From Escherichia coli (GTDB lineage: Bacteria > Pseudomonadota > Gammaproteobacteria > Enterobacterales > Enterobacteriaceae), in assembly GCF_003018255.1 (NCBI RefSeq), contig NZ_CP027440.1: 64,000 nucleotides of DNA. The stretch is one strand, 5' to 3'. The position numbers and the translations under genes are program-made. This document shows, in pieces, positions 3,697 through 45,782 of the stretch (position 1 is the first letter of the stretch; each line of letters begins with the position of its first letter). A model generated the notes under the pieces. The model did not search any database, was not told the DNA's origin, and was given only the letters and a program-made list of their open reading frames with translations.

Positions 3697-3718
3697 TCCT
3701 GATTTGTTACGTTAAACG

Positions 3719-3744
3719 CCTGTCATCCCGACAGGTGTTTTTTT
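3719..3744 (+). terminator. Intrinsic terminator of tcyP (CCTGTC-ATCCC-GACAGG + T8)
   Basis: Hairpin plus T-run read directly; T-run overlaps the cedA stop codon on the opposite strand. Confidence 0.75.
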
Positions 3745-3985
3745 ATTCTTCGACCTCATTTTCCTGACGAATCTGATTTGCCCAACGCTGGGCGGATTCA
3801 GGCACAGTAAACGCCGGTGAGCGCAGAAATGACTCTCCCATCAGTACAAACGCAACATATTTGCCACGCAGCATCCAGACATCACGAAACGAATCCATCT
3901 TTATCGCATGTTCTGGCGGCGCGGGTTCCGTGCGTGGGACATAGCTAATAATCTGGCGGTTTTGCTGACGGAGCGGTTTCTTCAT
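3743..3985 (-). CDS. cedA: cell division modulator CedA
   Basis: ORF 3743-4006; start placed at internal ATG 3985 (MKKPLRQQNRQ...) giving 80 aa. Confidence 0.8.
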   Translation of the reverse strand: MKKPLRQQNRQIISYVPRTEPAPPEHAIKMDSFRDVWMLRGKYVAFVLMGESFLRSPAFTVPESAQRWANQIRQENEVEE

Positions 3986-4188: not shown

Positions 4189-6450
4189 ATGTCGCAACAT
4201 AACGAAAAGAACCCACATCAGCACCAGTCACCACTACACGATTCCAGCGAAGCGAAACCGGGGATGGACTCACTGGCACCTGAAGACGGATCTCATCGTC
4301 CAGCGGCTGAACCAACACCGCCTGGTGCACAACCTACCGCCCCAGGGAGCCTGAAAGCCCCTGATACGCGTAACGAAAAACTTAATTCTCTGGAAGACGT
4401 ACGCAAAGGCAGTGAAAATTATGCGCTGACCACTAACCAGGGCGTGCGCATCGCCGATGATCAAAACTCACTGCGTGCCGGTAGCCGTGGTCCAACGCTG
4501 CTGGAAGATTTTATTCTGCGCGAGAAAATCACTCACTTTGACCATGAGCGCATCCCGGAACGTATTGTTCATGCACGCGGATCAGCCGCTCACGGTTATT
4601 TCCAGCCATATAAAAGCTTAAGCGATATCACCAAAGCGGATTTCCTCTCAGATCCGAACAAAATCACCCCAGTATTTGTACGTTTCTCTACCGTTCAGGG
4701 TGGTGCTGGCTCTGCCGATACCGTGCGTGATATCCGTGGCTTTGCCACCAAGTTCTATACTGAAGAGGGTATTTTTGACCTCGTTGGCAATAACACGCCA
4801 ATCTTCTTTATCCAGGATGCGCATAAATTCCCCGATTTTGTTCATGCGGTAAAACCAGAACCGCACTGGGCAATTCCACAAGGGCAAAGCGCCCACGATA
4901 CTTTCTGGGATTATGTTTCTCTGCAACCTGAAACTCTGCACAACGTGATGTGGGCGATGTCGGATCGCGGGATCCCGCGCAGTTACCGCACCATGGAAGG
5001 CTTCGGTATTCACACCTTCCGCCTGATTAATGCCGAAGGGAAGGCAACGTTCGTACGTTTCCACTGGAAACCACTGGCAGGTAAAGCCTCACTCGTTTGG
5101 GATGAAGCACAAAAACTAACCGGACGTGACCCGGACTTCCACCGCCGCGAGTTGTGGGAAGCCATCGAAGCAGGCGATTTTCCGGAATACGAACTGGGCT
5201 TCCAGTTGATTCCTGAGGAAGATGAATTTAAGTTCGACTTCGACCTTCTTGATCCAACTAAACTTATCCCGGAAGAACTGGTGCCCGTTCAGCGTGTCGG
5301 CAAAATGGTGCTCAATCGCAATCCGGATAACTTTTTTGCCGAAAACGAACAAGCAGCATTCCATCCAGGTCATATTGTTCCTGGTCTGGACTTCACCAAT
5401 GATCCCCTGTTGCAGGGACGTTTGTTCTCTTATACCGATACACAAATCAGTCGTCTTGGTGGGCCGAATTTCCATGAGATTCCGATTAACCGTCCGACCT
5501 GCCCTTACCATAATTTCCAGCGTGATGGCATGCATCGTATGGGGATCGACACTAACCCGGCGAATTACGAACCGAACTCGATCAACGATAACTGGCCGCG
5601 CGAAACACCGCCGGGGCCGAAACGCGGCGGTTTTGAATCATACCAGGAACGCGTGGAAGGCAATAAAGTTCGCGAGCGCAGCCCATCATTTGGCGAATAT
5701 TATTCTCATCCGCGCCTGTTCTGGTTAAGTCAGACGCCGTTCGAGCAGCGCCATATTGTTGATGGTTTTAGTTTTGAGTTAAGCAAAGTAGTACGCCCGT
5801 ATATTCGTGAGCGCGTTGTTGACCAGTTGGCGCATATCGATCTTAACCTTGCGCAGGCGGTAGCAAAAAATCTCGGTATTGAGCTGACTGACGATCAACT
5901 GAATATTACGCCGCCACCGGACGTCAACGGGCTGAAAAAAGATCCTGCGTTAAGTCTGTACGCCATTCCTGACGGTGATGTGAAAGGTCGCGTGGTAGCG
6001 ATTTTGCTTAATGATGAAGTGAGATCGGCAGACCTTCTGGCCATTCTCAAGGCGCTGAAGGCCAAAGGCGTTCATGCCAAACTGCTCTATTCCCGAATGG
6101 GTGAAGTGACTGCGGATGACGGTACGGTGTTGCCTATAGCCGCTACCTTTGCCGGTGCGCCTTCGCTGACGGTCGATGCGGTCATTGTCCCTTGCGGCAA
6201 TATCGCGGATATCGCTGACAACGGCGATGCCAACTACTATCTGATGGAAGCCTACAAACACCTTAAACCGATTGCGCTGGCAGGAGACGCGCGCAAGTTT
6301 AAAGCAACAATCAAGGTCGCTGACCAGGGTGAAGAAGGGATTGTGGAAGCTGACAGCGCCGACGGTAGTTTTATGGATGAACTGTTAACGCTGATGGCAG
6401 CACACCGCGTGTGGTCACGTATTCCTAAGATTGACAAAATTCCTGCCTGA
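4189..6450 (+). CDS. katE: catalase HPII (large-subunit monofunctional catalase)
   Basis: 753-aa ORF with catalase core sequence; RBS aaggagacgag upstream. Confidence 0.95.
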
Positions 6451-6454
6451 TGGG

Positions 6455-6700
6455 AGGCGGCGCAGTTGCGCCGCCTCAAATGATTTACATAGTGCGCTTT
6501 GTTTATGTCGGATGCGGCGTGAACGCCTTATCCGGCCTACAAAACTGTGCAAATTCAATATATTGCAGGAAAAACGTAGGCCTGATAAGCGAAGCGCATC
6601 AGGCAGTTTTGCGTTTGTCAGCAGTCTCAAGCGGCGCAGTTACGCCGCCTTTGTAGGAATTAATCGCCGGATGCAAGGTTCACGCCGCATCTGGCAAACA
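6455..6700. repeat. BIME/RIP-type cluster of REP palindromes (katE-chbG intergenic)
   Basis: Hairpin GAGGCGGCGC...GCGCCGCCTC at 6455-6478; canonical REP units GGATGCGGCGTGAACGCCTTATCCGGCCTAC (about 6510-6545) and inverted copies at about 6578-6607 and 6663-6697; central segment resembles an IHF-site-containing RIP element. Confidence 0.8.
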
Positions 6701-13615: not shown

Positions 13616-13656
13616 TAATTTGCACATATTGGTTTGTGCGAAAAAGAGTACTTTGT

Positions 13657-13757
13657 TCACGCCGGATGCGGCGTGAACGCCTTACTCGACCTACAAAACT
13701 ATGCAAATTCAATACATTGCAGGAGTCGAATAGGCCTGACAGGCGTAGCACGTCAGA
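13657..13757. repeat. BIME/RIP-type REP cluster (nadE-cho intergenic)
   Basis: REP unit GCCGGATGCGGCGTGAACGCCTTACTCGACCTAC and inverted partner AATAGGCCTGACAGGCGTAGCACGTCAGAC; central segment near-identical to the one at 6540-6580. Confidence 0.8.
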
Positions 13758-34042: not shown

Positions 34043-34050
34043 GACAATTG

Positions 34051-34082
34051 TGCCGGATACAGCGCAAACGCCTTATCCGGCC
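34051..34082. repeat. REP palindrome (gdhA-topB intergenic)
   Basis: TGCCGGATACAGCGCAAACGCCTTATCCGGCC. Confidence 0.7.
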
Positions 34083-34118
34083 ATAAAAATCTTCAGTATC
34101 AGATGGTTGAAAGAACCT

Positions 34119-36074
34119 TTATATTATCACTCCATTGCCCGCCTCTTCTGATGGCGGGCTTTTTTTCGGCGCTCTCTTGCGTGGCGAATCCTTTTTCTTC
34201 CCTTCTCCACCGCCGGGAGCCATTATTCCCCGAAACTGCCTTACCGACGTGCGCTTTGCCTGATCAATCAACTGGTACAATGTCCCCACCAGCGGCTGCA
34301 TAAAGTCCTGATAGCGACACTGCTTTTCGCTGATTTGCGTCAGCACCGATTCCCAGTGCGCGGTCATGTCCGGTCGCGTCGCCATTTCTGGCAGCGAATG
34401 GAATAGCGCTTTTCCGGCGTCGGTGGAGTGGATATAGCGCCCTTTTTTGGTCAGGAAGCCTCGCTTGAACAGCAGTTCAATAATCCCGGCGCGAGTCGCT
34501 TCTGTCCCCAGACCATCGGTCGCACGAAGGATCTTTTTCAGATCTTTGTCCTGCACAAAACGTGCTATCCCGGTCATCGCTGAAAGCAGTGTTGCATCGG
34601 TAAAATGGCGCGGCGGCTGGGTTTGCCGCTCTACCACTTCACCTTTTTCACACAGCAACTCATCGCCTTTCGCCACCACAGGCAGCGGCGTGCCGTCGTT
34701 TTCTTCATCGCGCTCTTTGCTGCCTAACAGTGTGCGCCAGCCTGCTTCAGCAAGAAAACGGGCTTTAGCGACAAATTTGCCTTTGGCAATGTCCAGTTCG
34801 ATAACACACTTGCGGAACACCGCATCCGGGCAGAACTGCATCAAATACTGACGGGCAATCAGGTTATAGACCTTCGCTTCGTTCTCCGTCAGGTTGATCG
34901 CAGAACTCCGTGCGGTCGGGATGATGGCGTGGTGCGCATCGACTTTTTTGTCATCCCAACAGCGGTTGCGTATATCTGGATCGACCACTGGCTGCGGCAA
35001 CAGATCTGGTGCATGAACGCTGATAGCATTCATCACCGCGTGGCGTCCGGCAAAATGTTCTTCTGGCAAATAGCGGCAATCGGAACGCGGATAAGTGATT
35101 AGCTTGTGCGTTTCGTACAGCTTCTGGCAGATATCAAGCACGTTCTGCGCGCTCAGACCAAAACGTTTAGCCGCTTCAATCTGCAACGCCGAAAGCGAAA
35201 AAGGCAGCGGCGCGGATTCTGATTCCCGTTTATCGTTATAGCTGGTGACAATAGCTGGTTGACCACTAATGCGGTTAACCACATGCTCCGCCAGTGGACG
35301 ATGTAATAAGCGCCCTTCTTCATCCTGGTACGGTTCACACGCTTCGCTCGGTTGCCAGATAGCGGTAAACCGCTCATCGGCAGGTGTCACGATATGTGCT
35401 TTGACTTCAAAGAAGTCTTTCGCCACGAAGTTTTCAATCTCTTCGTCGCGGCGCACCACCAGTCCGAGTACGGGCGTCTGCACGCGTCCCACGGAAAGCA
35501 CGCCCTGATAACCGGCATTGCGACCGAGAATGGTATACGCACGGGTCATATTAATGCCGTACAGCCAGTCAGCTCGCGCACGCGCCAGTGCAGAAACGCA
35601 CAGCGGTACAAACTCGCTATTGGAGCGAAGACGATCGATCGCCCGCTCAACCGCCTGCGGGTTCAGGTCGTTTATCAAACAACGCTGTACCTGCTGGCGC
35701 TTTTCCGGTGCCAGTTGCAGGTAGTCCAGCACTTCATCCACCAGCAGTTGCCCTTCGCGATCCGGGTCTCCGGCGTGAACGATTTCGCTGGCTTCATGCA
35801 GGAAGCGTTTGATGACATTAAGTTGTTTAGTCACGGAGGGTCGGGGCTGTAATTGCCACTTTTCCGGGACAATCGGCAAATCCGCAAGATTCCAGCGCGC
35901 ATAGCGGCTGTCGTAGGCGTCTGGCTGCGCCTGCTCAAGCAGGTGACCGATACACCAGGTCACCACCTGACCATTACCGCACTCGATAAAGCCATCGCCT
36001 TTCCGGTGCGGTTTAGGCAGGACATCAGCAATGGCGCGCGCCAGACTCGGTTTTTCGGCAATAAACAACCGCAT
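34119..36074 (-). CDS. topB: DNA topoisomerase III
   Basis: ORF 34119-36131; start placed at ATG 36074 ([16 protein letters not shown]...); Toprim/type IA topoisomerase. Confidence 0.9.
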
Positions 36075-39971: not shown

Positions 39972-40988
39972 ATGCAAAAGAAATCAATTTACGTCGCCTA
40001 CACGGGCGGGACCATCGGGATGCAGCGTTCCGAGCAGGGTTATATTCCGGTGTCAGGTCATCTACAGCGCCAACTGGCGCTGATGCCGGAATTCCATCGC
40101 CCGGAGATGCCAGATTTCACTATTCATGAATATACGCCATTGATGGATTCTTCTGATATGACGCCAGAAGACTGGCAGCATATTGCTGAAGATATTAAAG
40201 CGCACTATGACGACTATGATGGTTTTGTCATTCTGCACGGCACAGACACGATGGCGTATACCGCCTCTGCACTGTCGTTCATGCTCGAGAATCTCGGTAA
40301 ACCGGTCATTGTGACAGGGTCACAAATCCCGCTGGCTGAGTTACGCTCTGACGGACAAATTAATCTGCTGAATGCGTTGTACGTTGCGGCGAATTATCCT
40401 ATCAACGAAGTAACTCTCTTTTTTAATAATCGACTGTATCGTGGCAACAGAACCACCAAAGCCCATGCCGATGGTTTTGATGCGTTTGCCTCTCCAAACC
40501 TTCCTCCGTTACTGGAAGCAGGTATCCATATTCGCCGTTTGAATACGCCACCCGCCCCGCACGGTGAAGGGGAATTGATCGTTCATCCAATCACGCCGCA
40601 ACCAATTGGCGTAGTGACGATTTATCCGGGGATTTCTGCTGACGTCGTGCGCAATTTTCTGCGCCAACCTGTGAAAGCATTGATTCTGCGCTCATATGGC
40701 GTGGGTAATGCGCCACAAAACAAAGCCTTCCTGCAGGAATTACAAGAAGCCAGCGATCGCGGTATTGTGGTGGTCAACCTGACACAATGTATGTCCGGTA
40801 AAGTGAACATGGGTGGTTATGCCACCGGTAACGCCCTCGCCCATGCCGGCGTTATTGGCGGTGCAGATATGACTGTAGAAGCCACGCTAACCAAACTGCA
40901 TTACCTGCTTAGCCAGGAACTTGATACTGAAACCATTCGCAAGGCCATGAGCCAAAACCTGCGTGGCGAACTGACGCCGGATGATTAA
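39972..40988 (+). CDS. ansA: cytoplasmic L-asparaginase I
   Basis: ORF 39780-40988; start at ATG 39972 (MQKKSIYVAYTGGTIGM, asparaginase signature); 338 aa. Confidence 0.95.
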   Translation: MQKKSIYVAYTGGTIGMQRSEQGYIPVSGHLQRQLALMPEFHRPEMPDFTIHEYTPLMDSSDMTPEDWQHIAEDIKAHYDDYDGFVILHGTDTMAYTASALSFMLENLGKPVIVTGSQIPLAELRSDGQINLLNALYVAANYPINEVTLFFNNRLYRGNRTTKAHADGFDAFASPNLPPLLEAGIHIRRLNTPPAPHGEGELIVHPITPQPIGVVTIYPGISADVVRNFLRQPVKALILRSYGVGNAPQNKAFLQELQEASDRGIVVVNLTQCMSGKVNMGGYATGNALAHAGVIGGADMTVEATLTKLHYLLSQELDTETIRKAMSQNLRGELTPDD

Positions 40989-40998
40989 GGAGACTGCA

Positions 40999-41640
40999 AT
41001 GCACCCTCGCGCCCTGTTACTGGTCGATTTACAAAATGATTTCTGTGCTGGTGGCGCGCTCGCCGTGCCGGAAGGTGACAGTACGGTGGATGTCGCTAAC
41101 CGCCTGATTGACTGGTGCCAGTCGCGCGGTGAAGCGGTTATCGCCAGTCAGGACTGGCACCCGGCGAATCACGGCAGTTTTGCCAGTCAGCACGGTGTAG
41201 AGCCTTATACGCCAGGCCAACTCGACGGTTTGCCACAAACCTTCTGGCCAGATCACTGTGTGCAGAACAGTGAAGGCGCACAATTACATCCGTTACTGAA
41301 CCAAAAAGCGATCGCAGCGGTGTTCCATAAAGGCGAAAATCCTTTAGTTGACAGTTACAGTGCCTTTTTTGATAACGGCCGTCGGCAGAAAACCACGCTC
41401 GATGACTGGTTACGCGATCATGAAATCGATGAATTGATCATTATGGGTCTGGCTACTGACTATTGCGTGAAGTTTACCGTGCTGGACGCGTTACAGTTAG
41501 GTTATAAGGTTAATGTGATTACCGATGGTTGTCGTGGCGTGAATATCCAGCCACAGGACAGTGCGCACGCGTTTATGGAGATGTCAGCAGCTGGGGCAAC
41601 GCTATATACGCTGGCAGATTGGGAAGAGACGCAGGAGTAA
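40999..41640 (+). CDS. pncA: nicotinamidase/pyrazinamidase
   Basis: ORF 40981-41640; start at ATG 40999 with RBS aaggaga; isochorismatase-fold, 213 aa. Confidence 0.9.
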   Translation: MHPRALLLVDLQNDFCAGGALAVPEGDSTVDVANRLIDWCQSRGEAVIASQDWHPANHGSFASQHGVEPYTPGQLDGLPQTFWPDHCVQNSEGAQLHPLLNQKAIAAVFHKGENPLVDSYSAFFDNGRRQKTTLDDWLRDHEIDELIIMGLATDYCVKFTVLDALQLGYKVNVITDGCRGVNIQPQDSAHAFMEMSAAGATLYTLADWEETQE

Positions 41641-41800
41641 TATTAGTTGGATTCATCTCTGGCCTACATTTCCTCAATGACATTGTAGGCCAGGTAATAC
41701 TTGTTAGTGTTGCATTTAACCTACTCGCAGCTAAAACACGACATCCGAACAAGTCTATTTGCCCTCCCTTAATAACAGGCTTAAATACTAGACAACTCAT

Positions 41801-42073
41801 TCACTTAAACATGGCAATAGGCTTTGCTGAGATACCAAAATCTTCTTTTAACTGTTGTTTGCTCTTCATGACCATCTGACCATTTGTGTCAATTGTCATA
41901 TGCTGTGCTTCGGTATTATTACGGGCTTGCCACAGCATCACCAGTTGCAGGCAGTTCTCTTTTTGTTCCTCGGTCAACGCAACGCCATCAGGCCATTTCC
42001 CCAGTTCAACGGCGGTCGACAAACGCTGGTATACCTCAGGCGTCATGCTGTTGATAATGTCATCAAGATTCAT
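41801..42073 (-). CDS. yeaC: DUF1315 protein YeaC
   Basis: ORF 41801-42118; start at ATG 42073 (MNLDDIINSMTPEV...); 90 aa. Confidence 0.8.
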   Translation of the reverse strand: MNLDDIINSMTPEVYQRLSTAVELGKWPDGVALTEEQKENCLQLVMLWQARNNTEAQHMTIDTNGQMVMKSKQQLKEDFGISAKPIAMFK

Positions 42074-42114
42074 AATTTTTCCGCTCCTGTGGAATAAGTT
42101 GCTGAATCGTTTTT

Positions 42115-42528
42115 TCAACCGTTGATTTCTTCGCCGTTTTCGCCATCGGTAAAGCGTAAAGAGGCAGAGTTAACACAATAACGTTCGCCCGTTGGCTGCG
42201 GCCCGTCGGGGAAGACATGCCCCAGATGGGCATCACAGTTACCGCAACGAATTTCTATGCGCTGCATTCCATGTGACAAGTCTTTGATATAACAAATAGA
42301 TTCTTCACTCACCGGTTCGTAGAAACTGGGCCAGCCACAGCCGGAATCATACTTGGTTTGGGAATGAAACAGCGGGGCATCGCAGATCAAACAGTGATAT
42401 ACGCCGTCACGCTTGTTATGCAGTAAACGACCCGTAAATGGCGGTTCTGTCCCATGATTCTGCGTCACGTAGAACTGCATCTCGGACAAATTTTTTTTCA
42501 GTTCTTCTGCCGAAGGTTTATTAGCCAT
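42115..42528 (-). CDS. msrB: peptide methionine-(R)-S-oxide reductase MsrB
   Basis: ORF 42115-42558; start at ATG 42528; zinc-binding CxxC pairs and SelR catalytic region; 137 aa. Confidence 0.95.
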
Positions 42529-42857
42529 TTGCTCACATCTCACTTTAATCGTGCTCACATTACGTGACTGATTCTAACAAAACATTAACACCAACTGGCA
42601 AAATTTTGTCCTAAACTTGATCTCGACGAAATGGCTGCACCTAAATCGTGATGAAAATCACATTTTTATCGTAATTGCCCTTTAAAATTCGGGGCGCCGA
42701 CCCCATGTGGTCTCAAGCCCAAAGGAAGAGTGAGGCGAGTCAGTCGCGTAATGCTTAGGCACAGGATTGATTTGTCGCAATGATTGACACGATTCCGCTT
42801 GACGCTGCGTAAGGTTTTTGTAATTTTACAGGCAACCTTTTATTCACTAACAAATAG

Positions 42858-44883: not shown

Positions 44884-45782
44884 TCACACCATATCCAGCG
44901 CAGTTTTTCCTTTTGGTGCCGGATATGCCTTATCCAGCATAGCTAATTCCGCTGATGAAAGTTCGACCTCAAGCACAGCCGCATTTTGTTGGACATGGGT
45001 AATCGTGGCCGCTTTTGGAATCGCCATCACACCCTGATGGCTGATTACCCACGCCAACAATACTTGTGCCGCGCTGATATTGTGAGCATGTGCAATTTCG
45101 TTGACTACCGCGTTTTTTAACAGCCCATTGCGCAACCGCCCGGCCTGGGCTAACGGACTGTAAGCCATCACCGGCATCTGCTGTTTCTGGCACCAGGGAA
45201 GTAGATCGTACTCAATCCCTCGTGAACCGAGATGGTAAAGCACCTGATTAGTGGCACACTGATTCCCCCCGGCAGCTGCCAGAGTTCCTGCATATCGGCA
45301 TAATCAAGGTTAGAAACGCCCCAGCGGCGGATTTTTCCCTGGGCGATCAATTTTTCCATCGCTGCGACAGTCTCTTCAAAAGCGAAACTGCCAGACCAGT
45401 GTAATAAGTAGAGATCGAGATAATCAGTATTGAGACGGCGTAAACTGGCTTCGCATGCATTTATCGCTTTTTGCCCGCCAGCATTCCACGGATAGACTTT
45501 AGAGACGAGAAAGACGTTCTCACGCAGGCCGGTTAATGCTTCCCCAACCACCATTTCGGCACCGCCATCGGCATACATTTCGGCGGTATCAATGAGGGTT
45601 AAACCGAGTTCAATGCCCGCGCGTAGTGCAGCAACTTCTGTTTTACGCTGACTGGCATCTTCGCCCATATACCATGTTCCCTGCCCTATGGCTGGCAGTG
45701 AGACATCGCCACTAAATTGAATCATTTTTTGTTGCATTGCTTCCTCCCAGGTATTGCACCACCGTAATGCAAAACAGGGCAT
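44884..45782 (-). pseudogene. yeaE: aldo-keto reductase YeaE disrupted by -1 frameshift in a G6 (plus-strand C6) homopolymer
   Basis: Two consecutive minus-strand ORFs (45168-45782 and 44884-45243) each carry one half of an AKR; reading frame switches at plus-strand CCCCCC 45265-45270; adding one G restores ...QLPGGNQCATNQVLYHLG... Confidence 0.7.

Follow-up and report, generated by a model that had tools for sequence, protein, structure and literature searches.

The window, as we call the 64,000-nucleotide stretch of Escherichia coli DNA analysed here, very probably has the island-free allele at pncA-yeaC, a locus with an old two-state polymorphism, and the inverted repeat at this junction is, with the same confidence, independent of the indel and derived from a REP element. 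One state of the locus has the ydjLKJIHGFE operon and the other, found here, a short spacer only. From the linkage and divergence patterns we infer that this spacer is a distinct ancient haplotype, which may have been inherited or gained by homologous recombination through the flanking core genes.

Two states of the pncA-yeaC interval in E. coli

In the window, pncA and yeaC are adjacent, convergent and both intact, with no ydj gene between them (Table 1). The gene name pncA is the one used in the matching E. coli genomes, with a nucleotide identity to K-12 of 97-98%, and the stop codon of yeaC is TGA in the window and TAA in K-12 at the same position. Downstream of yeaC, the usual order of msrB, gapA, yeaD, yeaE and mipA follows. 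An earlier reading of the sequence alone had given a distance of 160 bp between the two genes, in agreement with the end of pncA at 41640 and a yeaC stop codon from 41801; in this spacer the convergent ansA-pncA and msrB-yeaC transcripts end. The same reading had placed the genes ydjE to ydjL between pncA and yeaC in K-12, and the annotation bears this out (pncA b1768, ydjE-ydjL b1769-b1776, yeaC b1777). The distance between pncA and yeaC in MG1655 is 9,173 bp instead of 160 bp, and compared to K-12 the eight-gene ydjE-ydjL block of ~9 kb is indeed missing here.

Table 1. Features at the pncA-yeaC junction of the window
Feature	Coordinates	Strand	Remarks
pncA (nicotinamidase/pyrazinamidase)	40999..41640	+	intact, 213 codons + stop; ORF list and translation
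pncA-yeaC spacer, island-free ('alpha') allele of the ydj locus	41641..41800	.	160 bp
Left arm of inverted repeat, CTGGCCTACA	41659..41668	.	repeat search; core GGCCTACA invariant in nine Escherichia sequences
Right arm of inverted repeat, TGTAGGCCAG, also putative head of REP relic	41684..41693	.	repeat search, alignment
Putative decayed Z2-type REP	41685..41721	- (REP consensus)	in-register ungapped comparison with a genuine REP (L092:2224)
Inferred site of the ~9.03-kb ydjE-ydjL segment	41741..41766	.	two-piece anchored alignment to the K-12 flanks; approximate
yeaC-proximal 55 bp	41746..41800	.	weak homology to the 55 bp that precede yeaC in island-bearing genomes
yeaC (DUF1315)	41801..42073	-	intact, 90 codons + TGA stop
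msrB	42115..42528	-	next gene of conserved order

The ydjLKJIHGFE operon is a sugar-acid catabolic cluster, a function that we take from the K-12 annotation and from the literature (PMC9602453). According to the K-12 annotation, it encodes two MFS transporters, a DeoR regulator, a PfkB kinase, an aldolase, two Zn-dehydrogenases and an aldo-keto reductase, and the island consists of these eight metabolic, transport and regulatory genes only, with no integrase, transposase or other mobility gene annotated. Its GC content is 46.4%, compared to 51.6% and 48.5% in the flanks. At the ends of the K-12 island, no direct repeats beyond chance were found: the shared words are only 8-9-mers, and ~0.24 shared 9-mers are expected by chance between the two junction regions. 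In some lineages (E. coli genome matches H103, H104, H105 and H122) the island has been struck by IS elements. In O157:H7 strains the insertion belongs to the IS3 family, and one MFS transporter gene lacks the name ydjE in the annotation; one strain carries an IS30 insertion, and in strain KTa005 only 8% of the island is left, adjoining IS1.

The spacer of the window had been described as free of any coding remnant, and this holds: a tblastn search with YdjE, YdjL and the GH18 chitinase described below yielded noise, with a best E-value of 0.07 over 13 aa. No ydj orthologues were found elsewhere in the 64-kb window, the sole similarity being the paralogue yeaE, and an Rfam search of the spacer returned only a sub-threshold, meaningless match to a miRNA hairpin. 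Within the 64 kb of its genome that were read, the window strain is without the ydj pathway.

To determine the frequency of both states, we surveyed 5,426 complete E. coli genomes with a 1.5-kb query spanning the junction. The query matched 5,425 of them, as a contiguous hit in 1,089 and split in two in the rest. The 160-bp spacer alone was present in exactly the same 1,089 of 5,426 genomes (20%), with an identity to the window of at least 99% in 79 genomes and of 95-99% in 959, and the K-12 island was found in the other 4,336 at an identity of 97.7-100%. Island and spacer are mutually exclusive and, since the two sets together cover 5,425 of the 5,426 genomes, the locus is strictly two-state in E. 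coli. JNE23-011, the best-matching complete genome (99.0% over 21.6 kb), is island-free too.

In a study of 700 meat-plant E. coli, ydj was handled as an accessory operon, and the prevalence of ydjI was 96.6% in phylogroup A, 29.9% in B1, 100% in B2, 50% in C, 100% in D and 100% in E (PMC9602453). Locus, flanking genes and eight-gene block are the same as those missing here, the window representing the allele without the operon, and the 20% of island-free genomes in our survey agree with this phylogroup-dependent prevalence (PMC9602453); phylogroup labels in the present analysis come from strain names and this one paper. The island-free ydj allele is a common, already documented variant of a known accessory-operon dimorphism. 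The junction detail reported below, namely the two flank haplotypes, the insertion point between hairpins and the short recombination tracts, stems from the present analysis and not from that study.

Three further differences from K-12 were observed in the window. yeaE (minus strand, 44884-45738) shows a 1-bp deletion in a T/C run at 45255-45270 (GATTCCCCCCGG versus GATTTCCCCCCGG in K-12), resulting in two overlapping ORFs at 44884-45243 and 45168-45782. Because this indel is missing in the three relatives compared (JNE23-011, strain 104 and O111:H8), it marks either a pseudogene specific to this strain or a sequencing error in a homopolymer. ydjO (K-12 b1730) is missing at 3697-3761, where ~1.1 kb of K-12 (L085 6327-7440) correspond to 64 bp. 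The third gene, ynjI (K-12 b1762), is missing between gdhA and topB at 34043-34144, where ~1.3 kb of K-12 are represented by ~100 bp; it is also missing in the JNE23-011 and E. albertii loci.

The inverted repeat behind pncA

A 9-bp inverted repeat had been noticed at 41660-41693 by the sequence-only reading. The repeat is real, but its arms measure 10 bp; they are 100% complementary, enclose a loop of 15 nt and start 18 nt past the pncA stop codon. The 64-kb window has seven distinct perfect repeats with arms of 10 bp or more and loops of 3-20 nt, versus ~1.4 per shuffled 64 kb, and with ~0.004 expected per 160-bp spacer the repeat is more than a chance occurrence. Folding of the RNA of 41641-41720 resulted in a minimum free energy of -26.2 kcal/mol (z=-4.4), with a stable hairpin on either strand. 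In nine sequences from three Escherichia species (E. coli with and without the island, and two others), the arms GGCCTACA/GTAGGCCA are unchanged, whereas loop and flanks vary.

The same repeat was detected in K-12, O104:H4 and in L003 and L006, two lineages known only as 'E. coli'-labelled, with flanking genes 5-11% diverged from E. coli. In K-12 (TGGCCTACAAT...ATTGTAGGCCA, L001 4539-4572) it directly follows pncA and lies beyond the island, on one side of it only. The position of the whole repeat beside pncA speaks against the earlier proposal that it could be a footprint of the indel event, and the other end of the K-12 island has neither the same inverted repeat nor direct repeats, save for a chance 9-mer. 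An excision footprint was also rejected as an origin of the repeat, as both arms lie on the pncA side in K-12 and the island is without mobility genes. The hairpin belongs to the pncA side of the spacer, whether the island is present or not.

On its sequence, the inverted repeat is probably a decayed REP-element hairpin, with a match to the Z2 type only. The right arm would be the GTAG-GCC head of the decayed REP and the left arm a complementary copy of this motif, and both would pair to the stable 10-bp hairpin just past the pncA stop codon. As Z2 reference we used a genuine REP from an E. albertii locus (L092:2224, GTAGGCCTGATAAGACGCGCAAGCGTCGCATCAGGCA). Over the 30 nt after the shared GTAGGCC, the window is identical to this REP at 16/30 positions, with 8 transitions (p=0.0002), and K-12 at 20/30 (p<0.0002); the comparison was also significant for L003, L006 and one B1 strain. 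Y- and Z1-type REPs drawn from the data showed no significant similarity to the REP body in local alignment. The relic is decayed and AT-enriched, the GC-rich REP stem is largely gone, and the remains form a second weak hairpin at 41694-41714 in the fold. Behind the left arm, no REP body was detectable by local alignment to Y and Z1 REPs (p=0.5-1.0), and a count by hand gave 8/29 matches to the REP consensus in the 29 nt concerned. The repeat does not amount to a complete BIME of two inverse REPs, since its left side consists of a ~10-nt tail motif only.

Several traits connect the relic with REP elements and BIMEs (Z2-type REP, GCCTGATGCGACGCTGGCGCGTCTTATCAGGCCTACG): it is likewise extragenic, lies between convergent genes and has the GTAGGCC head, its two motifs GGCCTACA/TGTAGGCC are arranged tail to tail as in real BIMEs, and a close variant of it is likewise an IS621 target. 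The same tail-to-tail layout of GGCCTACA, linker and GTAGGCC was found in the BIMEs at 6527-6610 of the window and downstream of gdhA in K-12. In contrast to these, the relic is heavily decayed, its linker has 15 nt versus ~33 nt in the BIMEs seen here, and it carries no feature annotation in the K-12 record used. The BIME at 6527-6610, which lies downstream of katE, is a canonical one in which a Y-type REP and a Z1-type REP lie tail to tail, joined by a ~34-nt linker; it served as the reference for REP architecture within the window.

IS621 targets REP elements at ATCAGGCCTAC with the core CT (PMC11208160). In strain 2011C-3911, which has a B1-type empty spacer, an IS621 copy interrupts the right arm (TGTAG^GCCAG) at the CT/AG core of ATCTGGCCTAC, and this target has one mismatch to the canonical ATCAGGCCTAC. 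The element itself is ~1.28 kb long, belongs to the IS110 family and lies at L099 2724-4000 (NZ_CP015240.1) in an otherwise island-free spacer. The corresponding minus-strand sequence of the window, ACCTGGCCTAC, has two mismatches to the IS621/REP target and is without an IS.

REP elements act as 3'-end or attenuator hairpins, and judged by this general function the hairpin behind pncA most likely serves as one as well. The alternative offered by the sequence-only reading, a terminator, stands as far as a stable hairpin at the 3' end of pncA is concerned, but with its 15-nt loop and without a T-run this hairpin fails the canonical intrinsic-terminator test. A promoter and terminator consensus scan of the spacer found neither, and the intrinsic-terminator scan of 40900-42700 yielded 0 sites versus 2.1 expected in shuffles. 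With Rho-independent terminators the hairpin shares the stable stem-loop directly past a stop codon and the convergent intergenic region; unlike them, it has no U-tract, a long loop and goes unseen by the consensus scan.

It is unlikely that the repeat is a dedicated and conserved bidirectional intrinsic terminator for pncA and yeaC (ydjE in K-12) whose likeness to a REP is incidental. The position right after the pncA stop between convergent genes, the stability of the hairpin and the invariant arms around a varying loop would fit this function, as would the unrelated GC-rich hairpins that other genera have at the same place after pncA. However, there is no T/U tract on either strand, the loop is long, the scan was negative, and the arms are merely invariant, with no compensatory changes. 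Moreover, the arm runs in register into the REP body and serves the REP-specific IS621 as target. The repeat is better described as a decayed REP than as a terminator, and it provides a worked example of a decayed REP that persists as a conserved stem and still attracts IS621.

Flank haplotypes and the site of the island

Over the first ~88 bp downstream of pncA, two haplotype classes can be distinguished: alpha, found in the window, JNE23-011, O111:H8 and the L006-type species, and beta, found in K-12, O104:H4 and the L003-type species. In E. coli, the two classes share 64-69% identity and differ by an 11-bp indel over these ~88 bp, compared to 81-83% identity between alpha and L006 and 82-84% between beta and L003. 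The difference between the classes (~35% plus the 11-bp indel) is far above the 5-11% that separate the Escherichia species in the flanking genes, and each class is common to E. coli and a different non-coli Escherichia lineage. The spacer of the window is homologous to that of L006, a divergent Escherichia species, over the full length. Both L003 and L006 lineages were island-free in all 24 contigs read for each. In E. coli, the beta class goes strictly with the ydj operon: of the 4,329 genomes with the beta left flank, all have it interrupted and none has it in an island-free spacer, and all 1,089 island-free genomes carry alpha, which corresponds to complete linkage.

The sequence-only reading had left the choice between an island never acquired and one precisely lost. 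This choice is too simple for an old haplotype that is shared across Escherichia species and moved by recombination, and a recent in-situ deletion is effectively excluded because a deletion from a K-12-like locus would leave a beta-type empty site, found in 0 of 5,426 genomes. We give hardly any credence to a recent precise deletion from a K-12-like, island-bearing ancestor in which the repeat was the scar or the substrate. The spacer contains no coding stub, and its 160 bp come close to the sum of the pieces retained in K-12 (92 bp on the left and ~50 bp on the right), two points in favour of such an event. But the spacer differs from the K-12 flanks by the 11-bp indel and at ~35% of the positions, the 1,089 island-free genomes include none with K-12-type flanks, the repeat is intact beside pncA in K-12 and missing at the other end of the island, and the same spacer exists in another species (L006).

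The reading as an old haplotype is further supported by the split of alpha into a window subtype and a B1 subtype, which are 5% apart in the spacer and 2.3-2.4% in the adjacent kilobase; this divergence indicates that the island-free allele itself is old. Comparison of two B1 strains, O111:H8 (empty) and O104:H4 (with island), revealed a divergence of 0.03-0.17% in the outer flanks; next to the junction it rises to 1.2% over ~1.1 kb on the left and 1.9% over ~0.65 kb on the right. For this one genome pair, the pattern points to homologous recombination having replaced the allele through short tracts that lie in pncA and yeaC-msrB.

The ydj locus fits the general pattern of islets that are exchanged via flanking core genes, with no integrase, tRNA or IS involved, and shows no distinguishing trait among them. 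The K-12 island has neither mobility genes nor non-chance flanking repeats, the ydj state has been swapped within B1 with tracts of ~1 kb, and the same site is used across genera. Elsewhere, the site takes other cargo, a GH18 chitinase gene or, in E. albertii, small ORFs and IS elements.

In the alignment of the window with K-12, the left part extends from pncA through the repeat to ~41709 and the right part from the yeaC stop codon onwards. Homology of the remaining spacer to K-12 is weak and was seen by positional (anchored or global) tests only; when the post-repeat spacer was aligned locally to both K-12 flanks, no match reached significance (p=0.16-0.58). Global alignment in which a long gap was nearly free produced tiny matches scattered through the island and was discarded as uninformative. 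Two-piece anchored alignments reached totals of 5-11 sd above shuffles (~5 sd for the window), with the best split after spacer position 125 and near-equal splits at 101-126. On the K-12 side, the left piece ends at L001 ~4632 (range ~4625-4646; ydjE stop codon 4622-4624) and the right piece begins at ~13668 (range ~13654-13668). The block of ~9.03 kb begins at the ydjE stop codon, ends ~320 bp upstream of ydjL and includes a conserved ~130-bp ydjL regulatory region.

For the 55 bp next to yeaC, global alignment against shuffles resulted in z=2.6 (p=0.012) for the window versus K-12, z=4.4 versus L003 and z=5.6 versus L006; island-bearing genomes compared to island-free spacers ranged from z=2.2 to 5.1. 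A yeaC-proximal hairpin (TCCCCT...AGGGGA) is present in K-12 and E. albertii and degenerate in the window. Because K-12 keeps both spacer halves, we place the ~9.03-kb block between the pncA-proximal REP hairpin and this yeaC-proximal hairpin.

The interval in other Enterobacterales and the ancestral state

Among the matches listed, many Enterobacterales have pncA and yeaC side by side, including Serratia, Rahnella, Mixta, Kosakonia and Phytobacter; E. fergusonii and named cryptic-clade representatives are not among the matches listed in this genus survey. Citrobacter, Klebsiella and Raoultella carry the island, and their islands are 84-90% identical to one another versus 77-79% for the flanks, which indicates an exchange of the island between genera at this site. 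The K-12 island is ~78% identical to those of other genera and thereby about as diverged as the core flanks (75-79%), as expected for a long vertical residence. The pncA-yeaC interval is a multi-cargo hot spot. In many genera it holds a gene of ~430 aa for a secreted GH18 chitinase-like protein with the motif DGIDLDWEFP (L009 10775-12067, with equivalents in Enterobacter, Klebsiella, Citrobacter and Leclercia), and in island-bearing Citrobacter, Klebsiella and Yokenella this gene is located between ydjL and, presumably, yeaC.

E. albertii is polymorphic for the ydj block. Where present, the island occupies the same site with the same left-junction sequence and is 92.7% identical to K-12, versus 88-93% for the flanks; the sequence beside ydjE resembles the REP relic of K-12 in a reading by eye. 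Island-free E. albertii have other end-points and 245 bp of unrelated DNA, and these losses or replacements are on that account independent. No ydj stubs were found when looked for in island-free E. albertii. Small ORFs of 181, 148 and 112 aa without Pfam match and IS elements were seen right after pncA in this species (L092-L097, L100-L107), as well as a SIMPL-domain gene between sppA and ansA.

In Salmonella enterica subsp. diarizonae (L035 10689-10750), the 'empty' spacer contains a 3' stub of ydjE of ~19 codons (…FCFGIETRRVSLETLSCLR*), followed by a REP and adjoining an alpha-like pncA flank. This stub indicates an independent and untidy loss of ydj in that lineage. Escherichia spacers contain no remnants of the chitinase gene, ydjE or ydjL; the ydjE stub is confined to the Salmonella spacer.

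Two histories of the old island-free haplotype have to be weighed. In the first, the island was present in the Escherichia ancestor, and one old, clean deletion gave rise to the empty allele, which was then passed among lineages; we regard this as a serious possibility that stays somewhat below an even chance. It is consistent with an old island that is syntenic in E. albertii, Salmonella (as the stub), Citrobacter, Klebsiella, Raoultella and Yokenella, and with the one junction architecture of all Escherichia empty spacers, as from a single event. It would, however, demand a deletion that started at the ydjE stop codon, reached ~320 bp upstream of ydjL and left no stub, when the Salmonella deletion left one. 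Furthermore, the beta-type empty spacer of L003 would need a crossover within ~60 bp or a parallel 11-bp indel, and the island-free form of E. albertii, with its own end-points and unrelated DNA, arose independently.

In the second, which we consider tentative, the site was never occupied in the Escherichia ancestor, and ydj was inserted once into a beta spacer and spread from there by homologous recombination, including to E. albertii. The adjacency of pncA and yeaC in many Enterobacterales (among the matches listed) fits this history, as do the two spacer halves that K-12 keeps around the island, the empty spacer without a stub, the GC content of the island below that of its flanks and the evident transfer between genera. 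Of the four possible combinations of indel and island, only three were seen in E. coli and the cryptic lineages, which fits a succession from alpha-empty to beta-empty to beta-island with no homoplasy. This history is challenged by the island of E. albertii, which is no less diverged than its flanks and has the same left junction, by the 19-codon ydjE stub of S. diarizonae, and by the divergence of the K-12 island from other genera, which resembles that of the core flanks.

For the annotation of the strain, these results mean that it should be recorded as ydj-negative, presumably without the YdjH kinase/YdjI aldolase pathway for long-chain sugar acids, and that the 160-bp spacer is to be taken neither for a deletion scar nor for the footprint of a mobile element. 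Beyond annotation the finding has little consequence. The depth and the cross-species sharing of the two flank haplotypes are the only aspect of the junction that is, mildly, unusual. Since the locus is two-state and each state is tagged by its own flank haplotype, it is handy for typing and for the study of recombination tracts. We consider it quite improbable that the polymorphism across species reflects long-term balancing selection on ydj sugar-acid catabolism and not REP turnover and occasional introgression; if it did, the pncA-yeaC interval would be a clear natural case of the presence and absence of a metabolic operon being maintained across species.
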